A stretch of DNA of 6,299 bases. Origin: a virus. A model generated the notes under the pieces. That model ran no database searches. It was not told where the DNA came from and saw only the letters and a program-made list of their open reading frames with translations. The first letter of the stretch is position 1. Every line of letters begins with the position of its first letter. The stretch spans positions 1 through 6,299 of IMG/VR virus record IMGVR_UViG_3300045988_001431. One strand, 5' to 3'. This document shows positions 864 through 6,299 of this stretch, in pieces. A program made the translations under genes and the position numbers.

Positions 864-2693
864 TTAGACCATATGGTTAAATATATCATTTGCATCATTA
901 AGTTTCTTATGCTTAATCATATCACGACAGAATTTCGATGAACGGTTATCCAAACACCTTTGTAAGTCGTCGCACAAATCGTTGTAATTTGCAGGTTGCG
1001 AGGCTTTAAAGGATGGTCCGACCAAACGAGAAAGAGCTGGGGAAAGTAATAATTTTCGGGGGTCATCAAAATGTAAGACGACCGGTTTGATTCCTGCCAT
1101 TCTGTCTCGAATAGTGTACGTGGAAAATGTTCCATCTTCTTCCTCCTTAACGGTCGACACTTCACATCCTGAGGCTGGTAAGTAAAAATATCGCAATAAA
1201 GGGAATTCGCATGTTTCTTGTATTCGCAACGAATCACACATTCGTACATAATCCGCTTTCTTTTCATATTCTAGACCCGTTTTAATGATAAAACTAATAC
1301 GATTGGCAAAAGGATACAAATTATCACCGATGCCAGGGAGATGCCAATTCCGGAGGAACTTGGAGACATAAAGGAACAGCCGATATAACTTATTAATAAA
1401 ATATTCAACATCGACATCGCTAGAACTGTTAACGAACCTAGTAAGACACCTAGCATTATGTAATATAATCTTATCTTCATCAGTTAATATATGATTTAAA
1501 GTTATATATCTATAATATGCACGCACAATAGATAAAATAGATTTACTATCATAATCTACAATGCCGAACCGTGCGATTCTTTTTGGCGCTGTTGTGACTG
1601 CTGAAATAACTCTAGATATCGCAACAACATCATCGCAGCGAGCTCCTGAGAATCTGGGGAGTAAGGAACGGATATACGATATGGGGGGAGTTGACTTGAC
1701 AACGATGCCATTAAAATTATACTCTCTTCCATTAACGACCGAATCGATTTTAGCTTCAATCTGCGCATAGACATCTTCACCCTCATCAAATGTTTCACCT
1801 TTCTCAAAAAATCCAAGGGACGCTCTTGAACGGGGTTTAAACGCACGGCATGAGCGATAAAGAGAGGGAGCAGAAGCCAAGCTGTTAACGTAACTCGCAA
1901 CGTACGAAGCGCATCCACCGTTGGAACATTGGATATCTGAACGACCGAACTTCCAACTTTTATTATGACACTCTCGAATGACATTGGAGATTTCCTTTGA
2001 GTTAAAGAATAATAGCAAATGGAAATGTGGGCGGAAATGGACTGGGCCATACTCGCCAACAGCGTAAAATGATATCTTTTCATTAGTATATCTGTCTAAA
2101 TGTCTACGTAAACGTTTAATATAATTCTGAACATCAACGTAATTCAGAAAAGGGATAAGGTTATTACCGTATCTACGGGAAAGTTCTCCATCCTTACCGT
2201 AAGGTGTAGCGGATTGAGTCTTATGGATAAAAGCACGCATAGAATCAATAGATACAAACCAATTATCCTTAACCGGCTCATACTCACCTGATTCACGGTT
2301 ATATGAAACCGTACCCTGAACCTGAGTAAAGAATATATGCTGTATTCGCTGAGGGTCAGCAGCACAGAATTCAGAAACCGGGACACGAGCATGCTCTTCA
2401 CATCCATAAACAACGCCGGAATCGCTTAAAACATCATCATATTCAGAATGGTATACTTCACAATTGAATAGAGGAACGTGTTCATTATCATAGGTGAGCG
2501 TAACAAACCAACAATACTTAAAGGCACTTCCGGCGGTCTTCACACGCATGGACGCCTTTTGAGCTCGCTTGTGTATACAATAGTCACATTGACCGCAATC
2601 TATAGCGATACGCTTACCTGTATATTTGTTGGTAATGAATGAACGATGTTGACAATGGTCAGCAGCCTTAAGCAAATCCGGCGTATATCTCAT
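864..2693 (-). CDS. VP4: Rolling-circle replication initiation protein (HUH endonuclease, Microviridae VP4 / gene A-like), 609 aa
   Basis: Motif I is FVTLTYD (2487..2507). Motif II is HFHLLLF, the HUH motif (2007..2027). Motif III is YVASYVNS with two Tyr spaced by 3 residues (1881..1904); compare phiX174 A YVAKYVNK, from memory. There is an N-terminal Cys cluster, CGQCDYC, preceded by HCQH. The start ATG at 2693..2691 overlaps the upstream stop as ATGA. The stop is TAA at 866..864. Confidence 0.95.
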   Translation of the reverse strand: MRYTPDLLKAADHCQHRSFITNKYTGKRIAIDCGQCDYCIHKRAQKASMRVKTAGSAFKYCWFVTLTYDNEHVPLFNCEVYHSEYDDVLSDSGVVYGCEEHARVPVSEFCAADPQRIQHIFFTQVQGTVSYNRESGEYEPVKDNWFVSIDSMRAFIHKTQSATPYGKDGELSRRYGNNLIPFLNYVDVQNYIKRLRRHLDRYTNEKISFYAVGEYGPVHFRPHFHLLLFFNSKEISNVIRECHNKSWKFGRSDIQCSNGGCASYVASYVNSLASAPSLYRSCRAFKPRSRASLGFFEKGETFDEGEDVYAQIEAKIDSVVNGREYNFNGIVVKSTPPISYIRSLLPRFSGARCDDVVAISRVISAVTTAPKRIARFGIVDYDSKSILSIVRAYYRYITLNHILTDEDKIILHNARCLTRFVNSSSDVDVEYFINKLYRLFLYVSKFLRNWHLPGIGDNLYPFANRISFIIKTGLEYEKKADYVRMCDSLRIQETCEFPLLRYFYLPASGCEVSTVKEEEDGTFSTYTIRDRMAGIKPVVLHFDDPRKLLLSPALSRLVGPSFKASQPANYNDLCDDLQRCLDNRSSKFCRDMIKHKKLNDANDIFNHMV

Positions 2694-2986
2694 ATTCGAT
2701 TTTCTATATGTTGATGACGATTTCTAGGACCAAAAGAAATGTGCATGAACCCATCATAAGTAATGAACTGGTCATAGGCGACATTATCCATAATATAAGA
2801 CGACAACTGATTATAAGTCGTAGAACCATAAGGCTTAAAGTCAATGGCTTCACCTTTTAAGTGCTGAGAGGTAGAAACACCTCCAGCAGCTTTATTCTGT
2901 TCGGGAGTACGATAAGCACTGGTTATAGTAAAATGATAGTTAAGCTGGAGCAAACCATCAAGAAAATGCATAAGAGCAGGATTCAT
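2690..2986 (-). CDS. Zinc D,D-/L,D-peptidase of the peptidase M15 (M15A / Peptidase_M15_3-like) type, 98 aa; putative cell-wall hydrolase (endolysin)
   Basis: The sequence ITSAYRTPEQNKAAGGVSTSQHLKGEAIDF matches the family pattern S.YR....N...GG...S.H..G.A.D. The H-x6-D zinc-ligand motif HLKGEAID lies at 2840..2863, and a distal His (MHIS, H82) at 2741..2743. I see no N-terminal signal peptide. Both ends form ATGA overlaps with the neighbouring genes. Confidence 0.85.
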   Translation of the reverse strand: MNPALMHFLDGLLQLNYHFTITSAYRTPEQNKAAGGVSTSQHLKGEAIDFKPYGSTTYNQLSSYIMDNVAYDQFITYDGFMHISFGPRNRHQHIENRI

Positions 2987-3069
2987 AAGCCTATCGCATT
3001 AAGAATGTAACCAAGAGCCGCACTGACAGCTCCAATAATAATTTTCCATATATTATTTTTAGTTGCCAT
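2983..3069 (-). CDS. Small 28-aa single-pass membrane peptide (MATKNNIWKIIIGAVSAALGYILNAIGL); candidate holin-like or membrane-targeting partner of the peptidase
   Basis: This is the C-terminal segment of track ORF 2983..3213, starting at the internal ATG 3069..3067. It has a short polar N-terminus followed by a ~22-residue hydrophobic stretch. It exactly fills the 72-nt gap between the 67-aa gene and the peptidase gene. Its ATG lies inside the last codons of the 67-aa gene (AATGGCAACTAA) and its TGA overlaps the peptidase ATG (ATGA). Evidence is positional and compositional only. Confidence 0.4.
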   Translation of the reverse strand: MATKNNIWKIIIGAVSAALGYILNAIGL

Positions 3070-3262
3070 TTTGAGTTGATTTAACAGGTTCGACGAATTG
3101 ATTCTCTTCTTTAATTGAATCCACAATAACAACAAGACCCAACGGAGAAATTCGCTCAGAATAATTTCCAAGACCATCCAAAGAATTGACAATATAAGGC
3201 GCAATAACATCACGTCCGGAATGTTTCTCTTTAATTGAAATAATAAATTTCTGCATAATCAT
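3059..3262 (-). CDS. Hypothetical 67-aa protein (MIMQKFIISIKEKHSGRDVIAPYIVNSLDGLGNY...); function unknown
   Basis: It is the first ORF downstream of the non-coding region on the coding strand and has a balanced, protein-like composition. The competing 76-aa ORF lies in its +1 frame, the frame that is spuriously open throughout this genome. I recognise no motif. Confidence 0.6.
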   Translation of the reverse strand: MIMQKFIISIKEKHSGRDVIAPYIVNSLDGLGNYSERISPLGLVVIVDSIKEENQFVEPVKSTQNGN

Positions 3263-3403
3263 AAATTTTAAACGTTAATAATAATAAGTTGGCTTCTACA
3301 GAGGACAAAGAAAGACATTATTTTTTATATATGCAAGATTTTTCGGATATTTTCCTTTGGTACGGTCTTGTGTGAGTTCAACGTTTATAGACAAGAGAGA
3401 GAG

Positions 3404-3426
3404 AAACTGAGAGGATAACTCAGTTT
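3404..3426 (-). terminator. Perfect 8-bp hairpin (AAACTGAG / loop AGGATAA / CTCAGTTT); candidate intrinsic terminator or attenuator
   Basis: Arms 3404..3411 and 3419..3426 are exact reverse complements. On the minus (mRNA) strand the stem is followed by TTTCTCTCTCTCTTG, and on the plus strand by a T at 3427 that extends the arm's TTT. The stem is AT-rich (3 GC pairs of 8), so it would be a weak terminator at best. Confidence 0.3.
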
Positions 3427-3447
3427 TGCATTCGCATTGAACTAGGG

Positions 3448-3571
3448 GCTTCGCTTGACAAAGTGCAAGATGTATACAGGGTGTATAGGCACGGCAAGGC
3501 AGAAAGTCTGTCTTGCCTTTGCGCACCTACGTGCTAAAATACCGCTTCGCTTCAAGGTAGGTCGCTTCGCT
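3448..3571. repeat. Three direct copies of GCTTCGCT (3448..3455, 3544..3551, 3564..3571); the last two are 20 nt apart
   Basis: Read directly from the sequence: gggGCTTCGCTtgaca, accGCTTCGCTtcaagg, ggtcGCTTCGCTccg. All three copies have the same orientation, as iterons do. Confidence 0.7.
3493..3517. other. 11-bp stem / 3-nt loop hairpin (GGCAAGGCAGA-AAG-TCTGTCTTGCC)
   Basis: Pairing runs 3493-3517 through 3503-3507, with a single G.T pair at 3499/3511. On the plus strand that position is a tolerated wobble. On the minus strand it becomes an A.C mismatch. Confidence 0.6.
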
Positions 3572-3586
3572 CCGTTTTTCGATCAG

Positions 3587-3633
3587 GCCCTACGCGGGCG
3601 GCGGGTGTATATCGCTCAAGCGCCGCGATGGGC
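3587..3633. other. GC-rich imperfect hairpin (GCCC-TA-CGCGG ... CCGCG-AT-GGGC)
   Basis: 3587..3590 pairs with 3630..3633 and 3593..3597 pairs with 3623..3627. The two stems are separated by a 2x2 internal loop, and the apical loop is ~25 nt and contains one GGGTGTATA copy. An alternative register, GCGGCG/CGCCGC, is also possible. Confidence 0.45.
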
Positions 3634-3730
3634 TTTTAGTCCTGAAGTATGTATACAAGAAAGGCCTACTCATCACGAGCGGGCCAATCAAAATTAAACA
3701 CAGAATTACTAAAGCAAAAAGATAGTATAA

Positions 3731-4864
3731 CTAATAACCTATACCATTAGAACCATTACGGGAAACCTGAGCACCGGGGCGCATAGCTCCAATTATATTA
3801 CCAGCACCCTGAAAAATACGAGATCCATAATCTATAGAATTACGTAAACCATAAGATTCAAAGTCCTTTCTGGCATTACCAGCAGACCACTTATAATAGT
3901 CTCGCAAGGCCTTATCTTTAGAATACTGCATATTCTTACGATTATTGACGTTCTTATAATCCCAAAGAGAATCATAATACTGTGTATAGTAAGCCATATT
4001 AGTAGCACTTACAAGAGAATCAGCAGTATCAGAAGCTATCTTATTAGTAATCTTCTGGCCTTGCGTCTGAGCAGCAACCTGGATTGCACGTTGAATTTCA
4101 GTTTGAATCTGTTTCTCAGTCAGAGCTCCTTGTTGTACAAGATTATAAAGATACTGGGCTTTTGTAAACAAATCTGCTTGCTGCTGAGCATCCATATATT
4201 TATTCAGGACAGCTTGAGAATCAGACTGTAAATAAATCTGAGTCGTTTGAGCGGCAGAAAGCTTACCAGCAGTAACAGCGTTATCTAATTGCTGACGCTC
4301 CATAGATTGGTCTAATTCAGCAGAAATACGGCCTGTTTCCTTATTCCAATAACCAGACTCACCGACACCAATATTCTTATAATTAGTATCACCTAACATC
4401 TTTTTTACCATATAAGGAAGAAGAGTGTCTATCTGTTTAGATTCAGATATAAACTTCTTAGCTTGAGCGAATGAAGCCAAAGCAGTATCCACACTTGAAA
4501 AGTCCGGATGAAAAGCCTGATACGGAATAGGACTGGCAGCAGAAGCCTGACCACCAGAGGGCGAAGAACCTGAGCCAGCACCAGTCTGAGCAGCAGAACC
4601 AGACATAAACGGATTCAAACCACGAGAAATCATAGCTTCAGGAGAATTATATTCTCGCGATTCATCAACCATCTTTTCTTGCCAATCACGTTGTTTCTTG
4701 GCTTCCAGCATATTGAACTTATTGGTAAGCTGAGTATTACGGAAATTAGCACGATTAGCAGAGGATTGCTGAAGAGCACCTCCAATAGCACTAATAGCAG
4801 CACCAATAAACTGCGGTTGGTTGCATGGAGAGAGCAAGCTCTCTCCAATTTCTAGAAACTTCAT
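3731..4864 (-). CDS. VP2: Minor capsid / DNA pilot protein (Microviridae VP2 / H-like), 377 aa
   Basis: There is an N-terminal small-residue hydrophobic segment, FIGAAISAIGGAL. FNMLEAKKQRDWQEKMVDESREYNSPEAMISRGLNPF (about 4607..4717) matches the FN..EA.K.RDWQE.M...Y......GLNP pattern I recall from gokusho/alpa-type VP2. It is followed by a Gly/Ser-rich linker and then a long Gln/Ala-rich region that is probably coiled coil. The start ATG 4864..4862 overlaps the upstream stop as ATGA. Confidence 0.85.
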   Translation of the reverse strand: MKFLEIGESLLSPCNQPQFIGAAISAIGGALQQSSANRANFRNTQLTNKFNMLEAKKQRDWQEKMVDESREYNSPEAMISRGLNPFMSGSAAQTGAGSGSSPSGGQASAASPIPYQAFHPDFSSVDTALASFAQAKKFISESKQIDTLLPYMVKKMLGDTNYKNIGVGESGYWNKETGRISAELDQSMERQQLDNAVTAGKLSAAQTTQIYLQSDSQAVLNKYMDAQQQADLFTKAQYLYNLVQQGALTEKQIQTEIQRAIQVAAQTQGQKITNKIASDTADSLVSATNMAYYTQYYDSLWDYKNVNNRKNMQYSKDKALRDYYKWSAGNARKDFESYGLRNSIDYGSRIFQGAGNIIGAMRPGAQVSRNGSNGIGY

Positions 4865-5307
4865 TGTGCAGCTGCAGCAGGTGCGGAAGCCTCAGGGGCG
4901 GGCGCTGACTGTTCCTCTGCCAACATACTCTTTGCGTAAGCAGTCAATTCAGAATGCTCAGAGGCCAACTGTTGTAAAACAGCCTGACGCTCTGACATAG
5001 ACTGACAGTGACGGGAGATAACAGACGCAAAACGTTCTTCATCCGTCATACCATCCATTACAGTAGACTGAGTAGGATGCATTTGAGCCAATATATTATT
5101 AACATTCATATCGCCAAGTAAACGACGATATTTTTCCTGATTCAGAAGAATGGAGGTCATATCCATAAACTGGAATTTTCCAGCTTCGACTTCTTCCAAC
5201 ATAACTGAATCATACGCAGATTCTTGATAAACGGGGTTTCCCTCAACAAATTGAGGAACATAATCATCCGGAATTAATTCCTTAGGGACATAAGCAAATT
5301 TTCTCAT
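4861..5307 (-). CDS. 148-aa acidic protein; putative internal scaffolding protein (VP3-like), assigned by position and composition only
   Basis: MRKFAYVPKELIPDDYVPQFVEGNPVYQ... starts at ATG 5307..5305, 12 nt after the capsid stop TAA (5322..5320). The track's start at 5319 is a TTG. The protein is acidic with an Ala/Pro-rich tail (SAPAPEASAPAAAAQ). The functional call is weak because I recognise no diagnostic motif. Confidence 0.8.
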   Translation of the reverse strand: MRKFAYVPKELIPDDYVPQFVEGNPVYQESAYDSVMLEEVEAGKFQFMDMTSILLNQEKYRRLLGDMNVNNILAQMHPTQSTVMDGMTDEERFASVISRHCQSMSERQAVLQQLASEHSELTAYAKSMLAEEQSAPAPEASAPAAAAQ

Positions 5308-5319
5308 AACGACACACAA

Positions 5320-6299
5320 TTAATAAGGTAAACCATTTCTATCCAAGTTCTGAACAGCGTAGACTTTGAAATTCACATTACACAGCAATTGGTCATAAGC
5401 TACATTATATGCAGTAGTAGAAACCTGAGATTGGAATATAGAATTCAATTGCTGAGGTCGAACCTTGAAAGATTGATAAGAAAATGAAGACTGACCAGAA
5501 ACCTGAGGCTGAGAACCTTGTAAAGGAGCAGCCCAAGACTGATAAGCAGTAAAGGGGCGGAAAGCGCCGTGAACAGTATCTATATTAGATTTCCATTGCC
5601 AATAGCGAAGATTATAACCGATATTACCTGTAGGACAAGACGGACTATTATTCAAAGCCAAAGCCGGAACAGGCTGCATACCTAATTGGTCGAATGCAGG
5701 TTGCGGAAAATCAGTAATACTAGTACACAACAATTGGGGGTTATGACCTTTTAATGCCCAATCCAATAAAGGCACAGAGTGATATACAATCATCAATACA
5801 CAATGTTCAGCACCACAATCATAAGTGAGAGTATGACCGGAATTAGAACCAACACCTTTACCAGCGATGACAGCCTGAGAAGTATCGGCTTCAAGATTGG
5901 TATTAAGAACTTCATTAATACTAATTACATTAGACCAACCTCCAACGAAATGAGAGTGATTACCCATATACTCAGGGGCTTTAATGCCGAATTGGGCAGC
6001 CATCTGGTCCGAATAATCCTTACTAGAGAACTGGACTACTTCTTTCCAGCGCTGGAGGTATTCAGTTGCACGGATTGACAAGGCAGATAGGTCAGAATTA
6101 AGAGTAGCATAACGAGTAGCGGAAGAAGTATTACTAGTAATAACAGAAGTAGAGGAGGGAGAGTTCATAATAGAACCAACAGAACCGGCACCCAAAGGAG
6201 AAGCATAAACACGGGACGGACTATCGGAAGAAGCTAATGCACCAGGCATAACAGCTACCGAACCATACTGAGAGGATGGGAGAACTCCCATAAAATAGT
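5320..6299 (-). CDS. VP1: Major capsid protein, C-terminal part. The unique sequence is 5320..6200; 6201..6299 duplicates 1..99.
   Basis: Track ORF 5320..6291 begins at an internal Met. The frame stays open to the window edge (..DYF-MGVLPSS..) and joins 1..847 in phase. The joined CDS is 1728 nt, giving 575 aa plus a stop. It ends ...LDRNGLPY-TAA. Confidence 0.93.
   Translation of the reverse strand, partial: YFMGVLPSSQYGSVAVMPGALASSDSPSRVYASPLGAGSVGSIMNSPSSTSVITSNTSSATRYATLNSDLSALSIRATEYLQRWKEVVQFSSKDYSDQMAAQFGIKAPEYMGNHSHFVGGWSNVISINEVLNTNLEADTSQAVIAGKGVGSNSGHTLTYDCGAEHCVLMIVYHSVPLLDWALKGHNPQLLCTSITDFPQPAFDQLGMQPVPALALNNSPSCPTGNIGYNLRYWQWKSNIDTVHGAFRPFTAYQSWAAPLQGSQPQVSGQSSFSYQSFKVRPQQLNSIFQSQVSTTAYNVAYDQLLCNVNFKVYAVQNLDRNGLPY
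6201..6299. repeat. Terminal direct repeat, copy 2: circular-contig overlap, identical to 1..99
   Basis: Same as copy 1. De Bruijn assemblers commonly leave an exact overlap of k-mer-like length on circular contigs. Confidence 0.97.

Follow-up and report, generated by a model that had tools for sequence, protein, structure and literature searches.

Several lysis cassettes are well described in tailed phages, including S105/S107-R of lambda, the pinholin S68/S71 of phage 21, and the holin of phage T5 with its M15-type L-alanyl-D-glutamate peptidase. The lysis protein E of phiX174 represents single-gene lysis and acts as an inhibitor of MraY. TisB, a type I toxin of 29 aa, and its kin demonstrate that a peptide of about 30 residues can be enough to collapse the membrane potential. 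Microviruses of the type analysed here are among the most abundant phages of mammalian gut, mouth and vaginal samples, and we know of no established lysis mechanism for microviruses beyond the phiX174 group.

The M15 peptidase of microviruses was proposed as an endolysin by Roux et al. in 2012, who noted that no holin-endolysin system was present in microviruses and inferred that the peptidase had been horizontally acquired (PMC3394797). Kirchberger et al. in 2022 listed the peptidases among the lysis-associated accessory genes, and omitted overprinted genes from their analysis (PMC9239249). In the literature searched, no description of the peptide analysed below was found; the M15 peptidase was the only protein named as a possible endolysin, and no route across the membrane was named. 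The analysis presented here suggests that this peptide is the conserved core of a real, unannotated membrane gene of the lysis-cassette type, which is probably nested within a longer overprinted gene.

The window, meaning the whole stretch of 6299 nt that was analysed, is a complete circular microvirus genome with terminal redundancy, and its genes lie on the minus strand only. Among public records, the nearest come from lemurs (Dulem viruses) and from human, dog and marmot samples (microviruses), with 65–85% nucleotide identity in this region. The genome encodes the VP1 capsid protein (5320–6291, continuing at 2–847), a 152-aa product (4861–5319) and the VP2 pilot protein (3731–4864), and the gene list then shows a non-coding stretch of 470 nt before orf67 (3059–3262, with a conserved start, MQKF, at 3256). 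A coupled chain follows, in which orf67, the peptide, the peptidase (2690–2986) and the 609-aa Rep (864–2693) succeed one another. The Rfam search of the window returned no match. The absence of Shine-Dalgarno sequences, together with the literature, points to a host among the Bacteroidales. No prophage or microvirus copies were found in a degenerate-pattern scan of 185,579 species genomes. A pattern match in Dehalococcoidia (IGAVSAALGY) was rejected as a chance match; it belongs to an unrelated membrane protein with open frames of about 420–570 codons.

An earlier note on this DNA, made from its letters, had described a 28-aa single-transmembrane peptide directly upstream of the peptidase and had considered it either an ultra-small holin or membrane partner of the peptidase, or non-coding filler. 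Translation of positions 2983–3069 on the minus strand confirmed the ORF, giving MATKNNIWKIIIGAVSAALGYILNAIGL (28 aa) followed by a stop codon. The ATG at 3069–3067 is situated 8 nt upstream of the orf67 stop codon (TAA, 3061–3059), and the two genes overlap by 11 nt (3059–3069), so that the start does lie inside the last codons of the previous gene, as described. This geometry suits termination-reinitiation. The ATG is retained across clades despite variation in the C-terminal residues of orf67 (NGN, DEK, NGK, DENK, NEA). At the other end, the TGA (2985–2983) overlaps the peptidase ATG (2986–2984) in an ATGA junction at 2983–2986, again in agreement with the note. A polar, basic head (MATKNNIWK) opens the peptide, and behind it come 19 residues, hydrophobic or small, whose mean Kyte-Doolittle hydropathy is 2.03; from W8 to the C-terminus there are 21 residues. 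The predicted helix is rich in small-xxx-small motifs, which the note had also pointed out, and displays a continuous small-residue face (GAVSAALG). The C-terminus (LNAIGL) is inside or at the end of the helix, and a hydrophilic, highly charged C-terminal domain is absent.

Relatives were collected from IMG/VR using a degenerate DNA pattern for IGA[VI]SAALGY. The search returned 110 microvirus genomes and one chance match; the 110 genomes are mutually related and do not constitute independent samples, and counts pooled over them overstate the evidence. The short ORF was intact in all 110 (26–28 codons), beginning with its own ATG in 109 and with GTG in one, and it was likewise intact in nine GenBank relatives, among them the microviruses of the Dulem, dog and marmot records. 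The observation that the note had named as a refutation, a broken or frame-shifted ORF beside a retained peptidase, was made in no genome. The peptide is annotated in none of the GenBank records inspected, because its 87 nt fall under the usual gene-calling size. The 124-aa peptidase CDS of Dulem viruses 226, 238 and 243, which extends upstream over the peptide, was rejected, since this extended frame carries stops in closer relatives, where the peptide frame is always open.

The pattern of substitution in the transmembrane core is that of a translated sequence. Among the 17 distinct sequences of this 21-codon core, 18 of the 21 third positions were variable compared with two of the 21 second positions, and a serine switches between TCN and AGY codons from one relative to another. 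Across 600 genome pairs, dN/dS was 0.05 in the core (dS 0.65) and 0.20 in the adjacent peptidase (dS 0.82). Together, the dN/dS values and the codon-position pattern indicate selection on amino acids and not on nucleotides, and the purifying selection on the peptide core is approximately four times stronger than on the peptidase. The notion that the ORF is non-coding filler between two genes could draw on its lack of annotation in every GenBank record inspected, but it does not accord with the codon-position pattern, the serine switch, the low dN/dS, the absence of frame-breaking indels or the intact ORF in every one of the 110 genomes. On this comparative evidence, the short ORF is a genuine coding sequence and the filler reading is excluded.

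A second, rarer lineage (L010 and L011) is without orf67 and has a stand-alone transmembrane ORF of 31 codons, MSTENNKKTNWITAVISAIVAALTSLLSNLA, which immediately precedes the peptidase; a stop codon five codons upstream closes its frame. The L010 and L011 versions differ at eight nucleotides, all of them synonymous. Further peptides of the L010 type were searched for and none was found beyond these two genomes, and the more distant peptidase loci (L013–L029) showed no consistent small transmembrane ORF beside the peptidase.

The 98-aa neighbour (2690–2986, minus strand) is a LAS-type zinc peptidase of the M15_3 family, with matches to Pfam PF08291 (E = 1.7e-12; 47.8 bits against a cut-off of 23.2) and to PHROG 894, 'endolysin' (E = 5e-21). 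Its nearest solved structure is the L-alanyl-D-glutamate peptidase of phage T5 (2mxz), and the S-x-H-x-x-G-x-A-x-D motif aligns SQHLKGEAID in the peptidase with SKHITGDAID in the T5 endolysin. The H-x6-D ... H zinc motif is also present. The earlier note had called this enzyme signal-less, and correspondingly the best 15-residue hydropathy window reached 0.78; the N-terminus holds D, Q, N and H and is not hydrophobic, and the protein is without a signal or anchor sequence. No signal-anchor-release domain was found at the peptidase N-terminus, so that the locus does not conform to a pinholin/SAR-endolysin pair.

The peptidase was present beside the peptide and coupled to it by ATGA in 102 of the 110 relatives; in nearly all of these, L069 being an exception, the peptidase match begins 3 nt short of the peptide ORF's end. 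The enzyme drifts to 55–60% identity among relatives while the peptide helix remains near-invariant. The remaining eight genomes (L039, L076, L086, L094, L096, L108, L117 and L125) have no M15 peptidase anywhere: when a profile made from about 100 of the peptidases was run against all six frames with hmmsearch, nothing better than E = 0.2 came back. All eight retain the peptide. In L086 the gene order is otherwise identical, with the peptide followed directly by Rep, and the long form described below is intact in L039, L076, L086, L094 and L125. On the Rep tree the eight genomes are scattered, requiring seven changes, of which at least four are forced by well-supported branches. A single loss of the peptidase was rejected on this basis, and the scatter indicates that the presence of the peptidase is polymorphic and the membrane gene constant. 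Since the gene persists in these eight genomes, its role cannot be limited to releasing the peptidase. The earlier suggestion of a peptidase partner is therefore upheld as regards the ATGA coupling in 102 of the 110 genomes, but not as regards strict dependence on the enzyme.

The reading frame of the peptide stays open upstream beyond 3069, as far as a GTG at 3213. This gives an ORF of 76 codons (2983–3213, minus strand; GTG 3213, ATG 3210) in the +1 frame of orf67, which lies over approximately codons 16–65 of that gene and ends in the same transmembrane helix. With respect to an ultra-small holin of 28 aa, the ORF does possess a conserved ATG of its own, but 28 aa is probably not the whole product, as the frame runs for 76 codons. 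In 108 of the 110 genomes, no stop interrupts the +1 frame over at least 54 codons ahead of the peptide ATG, and in 98 an ATG was present 46 or 47 codons upstream; it is missing, for example, in L003.

Several statistical features of orf67 are consistent with a second coding frame. In the window, its +1 frame contains one stop codon, compared with 5.4 expected from synonymous-codon resampling (p = 0.006), a control that was calibrated on the peptidase, VP1, VP2 and the 152-aa gene. Over all genomes, 28 stops were observed against 414 expected (ratio 0.07); the corresponding ratio was 1.07 in the peptidase and 0.86 in the large genes. Isoleucine, leucine and valine codons ending in A (NTA) before a purine amounted to 0.5% in orf67, versus 8% in its safe contexts, and to 13–17% in other genes. 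Across the overlap, orf67 shows frozen synonymous sites, many of the four-fold ones being invariant in about 100 genomes; in these genomes, the peptide and the peptidase use three or four bases at their four-fold sites. Mean third-position entropy stood at 0.80 over the opening 14 codons of orf67, fell to 0.42 within the overlap and returned to 0.80 in the peptide (Mann-Whitney p = 0.002). Furthermore, the first-position entropy rises in the overlap, as expected of a dual-coding pattern. Divergent clades have the hydropathy pattern of the long form in common: a hydrophobic helix at the N-terminus, then a basic loop, then the C-terminal helix. AlphaFold2 predicted helices at residues 2–39, 42–49 and 52–73 (mean pLDDT 77.6, pTM 0.38), the relative orientation of the helices being uncertain given the low pTM.

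These features would have another origin if only the stand-alone 28-aa peptide were made, and the open frame and frozen sites reflected a cis-acting DNA or RNA signal, codon-pair bias or shared ancestry. The short ORF's own ATG in all but one of the 110 genomes is in keeping with this account, as is the 31-aa version in L010 and L011, which occurs there on its own. Not all genomes share the start of the long form, and the extension is 35–43% identical between clades compared with 71–75% for the peptide. In L095 a nonsense codon in the extension, a TGG-to-stop change as in L100, leaves the short ORF alone intact. L100 also carries a nonsense codon in the extension, although an in-frame ATG follows at once, 35 codons upstream of the peptide, and this genome could therefore still make a 62-aa form. 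In addition, the +1 frame of Rep contains comparably long stop-free blocks, conserved in 105 genomes, so that stop depletion is not peculiar to orf67 and is by itself no proof of an overprinted gene; either several overprinted genes are present in the genome or some other factor holds the +1 frames open. The position and character of the frozen sites nevertheless argue against a short product only. The freeze starts around codons 11–16 of orf67, where the GTG and ATG of the long form are located, and runs to the end of the gene. At the third positions of the overlap, T and C predominate, so that the alternative frame stays hydrophobic, and an acidic residue of that frame (E/D15) is retained where the orf67 residue varies. 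No structured element was detected in the overlap: it folded more weakly than its shuffled versions, with z = +2.1 for RNA and z = +1.5 for DNA, and nucleic-acid structure is therefore an unlikely cause of the frozen sites. On balance, we consider it unlikely that the short peptide is the only product. A two-helix membrane protein of 75–76 aa overprinted on orf67 is probably a real product, and the case for the short form is stronger still, its conserved ATG and the L010/L011 precedent making it a likely one.

The protein encoded by orf67 itself was modelled by AlphaFold2 as a three-stranded sheet (pLDDT 79.5), with no fold match in the PDB at E <= 0.001 and no family match in Pfam or PHROG. 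Similarly, no family in Pfam, PHROG or NCBIfam was matched significantly by the 28-aa form, the 76-aa form or three variants, and no holin family was identified. The best sub-threshold match of the 76-aa form was phrog_1893, of unknown function (E = 0.013), and Phage_holin_3_3 was matched by the L010 variant only, under its cut-off (E = 0.033). Matches to SLATT_4, the LydA holin and Lgt were below their cut-offs and were discounted as effects of transmembrane composition. PF20096 (DUF6486), a family of peptides of about 31 residues, did not match the six-frame translation of the window at E <= 10, and hmmscan of four peptide variants gave no DUF6486 match. A profile of the long form searched against 1.84 billion proteins retrieved 24 matches, all from the same microvirus lineage or from chimeric assemblies thereof, and no relatives in bacteria or tailed phages. 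This lineage-restricted distribution fits a de novo overprinted origin.

We favour the interpretation that the gene encodes a holin-like or lysis membrane protein, to which we assign a probability of about 0.5. The product is small, with at least one predicted transmembrane domain, and its gene adjoins that of an endolysin-type enzyme. The lysis-cassette position, directly upstream of the peptidase in more than 90% of the genomes, supports this interpretation, and no other candidate for the crossing of the inner membrane is present in these 6-kb genomes. From its position and anatomy, we infer a holin activity along the following lines. Two forms would be translated. The long form of 75–76 aa, from GTG 3213 or ATG 3210 to 2983 and overprinted on orf67 in the +1 frame, would consist of an N-terminal hydrophobic helix with a conserved E/D and R, a strongly basic loop and the C-terminal helix IIIGAVSAALGYILNAIGL. 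Translation of the short form of 28 aa would start at ATG 3069, probably through reinitiation by ribosomes that have just completed orf67. The helix would span the inner membrane with the basic head or loop on the cytoplasmic side, and the small-residue face (G13/A14/S16/A17/A18/G20) could mediate oligomerisation. Late in infection, the oligomers may permeabilise or depolarise the membrane, and this opening would let the signal-less, ATGA-coupled M15 peptidase reach and cut the murein, which would amount to holin-endolysin logic in a ssDNA phage. Where a relative has no peptidase, the membrane protein would have to act alone or with host autolysins. Against a holin stand the missing charged C-terminal tail and the lack of a holin family match, and against a self-assembling pore stands the dN/dS of 0.05 of the helix, which is at least as compatible with a specific protein target.

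The latter point leads to the main rival reading, which we regard as doubtful, that the gene encodes a single-gene lysis protein ('amurin') of the phiX174 E type, which would bind and block a conserved host enzyme of envelope synthesis such as MraY or MurJ and lyse the cell unaided, with the M15 peptidase as a later and dispensable accessory. A near-invariant helix beside a drifting peptidase fits a fixed host target, and the horizontal acquisition of the peptidase proposed by Roux et al. in 2012 (PMC3394797) is compatible with an accessory role, as is the persistence of the gene in the eight peptidase-less genomes scattered over the Rep tree. The long form is, as judged by statistical evidence, overprinted within another microvirus gene, in its +1 frame as E is in D, and confinement to one lineage is to be expected of a gene that arose de novo by overprinting. 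However, an amurin would make the enzyme redundant, whereas 102 of the 110 genomes couple the gene through ATGA to an enzyme of endolysin type. The 76-aa ORF also shows no Pfam similarity, the E family included, and its conserved helix is C-terminal whereas that of E is N-terminal.

A role outside lysis, as a superinfection exclusion protein, a burst modulator similar to K of phiX174, or a membrane anchor for replication or assembly, appears distinctly improbable. It would account for the persistence of the gene without the peptidase, for the lack of a holin family match and for an adjacency to Rep that is as constant as the adjacency to the peptidase. It does not readily explain why the most conserved small gene of the lineage is found directly before an endolysin-type gene in over 90% of the genomes, nor what else would cross the inner membrane in viruses that contain no other candidate. 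We also considered, as a tentative and rather unlikely proposal, a new type of lysis gene born de novo by overprinting, in which the nested products of ~75 and ~28 aa, with one helix in common, would serve as effector and regulator, or in which the peptide alone, through its near-invariant helix, would act as a 'protein antibiotic' against a conserved envelope enzyme of Bacteroidales, the peptidase being optional.

This gene is a concrete candidate for the missing inner-membrane step in microvirus lysis. The peptide gene is present with or without the peptidase and is the more constrained of the two (dN/dS 0.05 versus 0.20). It is probably the second lysis-type gene of microviruses to have been born by overprinting, after E of phiX174. 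If the helix does hit a specific host target, this would also point to a new vulnerable step in the Bacteroidales envelope.

The locus resembles the holin-endolysin cassettes of tailed phages in that a small membrane gene lies directly upstream of, and overlaps, the gene for a signal-less muralytic enzyme. The resemblance extends to the helix, which is rich in small-xxx-small motifs as in the holins of these phages, and to the long form, which with its 75–76 aa and two predicted helices is of the usual holin size. The nested starts recall the dual-start motif of holin/antiholin pairs; however, the nested forms here are 48 residues apart, and not 2–3. In contrast to the tailed-phage holins, the peptide gene sits in a ssDNA microvirus of 6.2 kb, belongs to no holin sequence family and encodes no charged C-terminal tail, and it is probably overprinted on another gene and survives without the enzyme in some relatives. 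The neighbouring enzyme is of the same kind as the M15_3 peptidases of gut Alpavirinae and Gokushovirinae (PMC3394797; PMC9239249), although those papers describe no membrane partner.

The comparison with E of phiX174 is similarly divided. Both are membrane proteins of microviruses, overprinted (in the present case probably so) in the +1 frame of another gene, both have their conserved information in one transmembrane helix, and both are restricted to a lineage. The two share no sequence similarity, the conserved helix is C-terminal in the present case, and the gene is usually accompanied by a peptidoglycan peptidase, which is absent from phiX174. The short form is also similar in size and one-helix architecture to TisB-type membrane-toxic peptides; the genetic context differs, being without an antisense RNA here.

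The Rep gene (864-2693, minus strand) contains long stop-free blocks in its +1 frame, and these were kept across 105 related genomes. In the window, the corresponding +1 ORFs are located at 2144-2413, 1556-2083, 1271-1480 and 917-1267. In the 105 genomes, no +1 stop was observed over Rep codons 211-360 (289 expected), and only 5 were present over codons 91-180 (160 expected). Within these blocks, isoleucine, leucine and valine codons ending in A were absent before purines, compared with 19-42% in safe contexts. Either Rep carries overprinted genes within its long C-terminal extension, or the blocks reflect an unexplained compositional property.

The orf67 gene (3059-3262, minus strand) encodes a conserved protein of 65-67 amino acids. 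An AlphaFold2 model predicted a three-stranded beta-sheet (pLDDT of 79.5), and neither a family nor a fold match was found in Pfam, PHROG or the PDB. The sole non-coding region of the window (3263-3730) includes a GC-rich island at approximately 3420-3650, and no Rfam match was identified in this region.

In the GenBank records of Dulem viruses 226, 243 and 238 (loci L033, L034 and L035, respectively), a 124-aa CDS at locus positions 693-1067 is labelled as a peptidase or 'hypothetical protein'. This CDS begins at an upstream in-frame ATG and overruns the conserved peptide ORF in a different frame. As the frame of the upstream extension is interrupted by stops in closer relatives, the 124-aa annotation is probably too long.

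A stand-alone transmembrane ORF of 31 codons was present in L010 and L011 (locus positions 2903-2998), two genomes of a rarer microvirus lineage that lacks orf67. The ORF lies directly before the peptidase, which is 60% identical. The distance from the tryptophan to the C-terminus is 21 residues in both this ORF and the window's peptide; the two share 30% identity, and their homology is uncertain.

A membrane protein with open frames of about 420-570 codons was found in Dehalococcoidia and Chloroflexota genomes (loci L149-L166). Its C-terminal end reads ...GLEILGIGAVSAALGYGLGELLPRVLGF, and it therefore shares the decapeptide IGAVSAALGY with the phage helix, to which it is unrelated. The two proteins appear to have converged on this small-residue helix motif, and the shared decapeptide does not seem to indicate homology.
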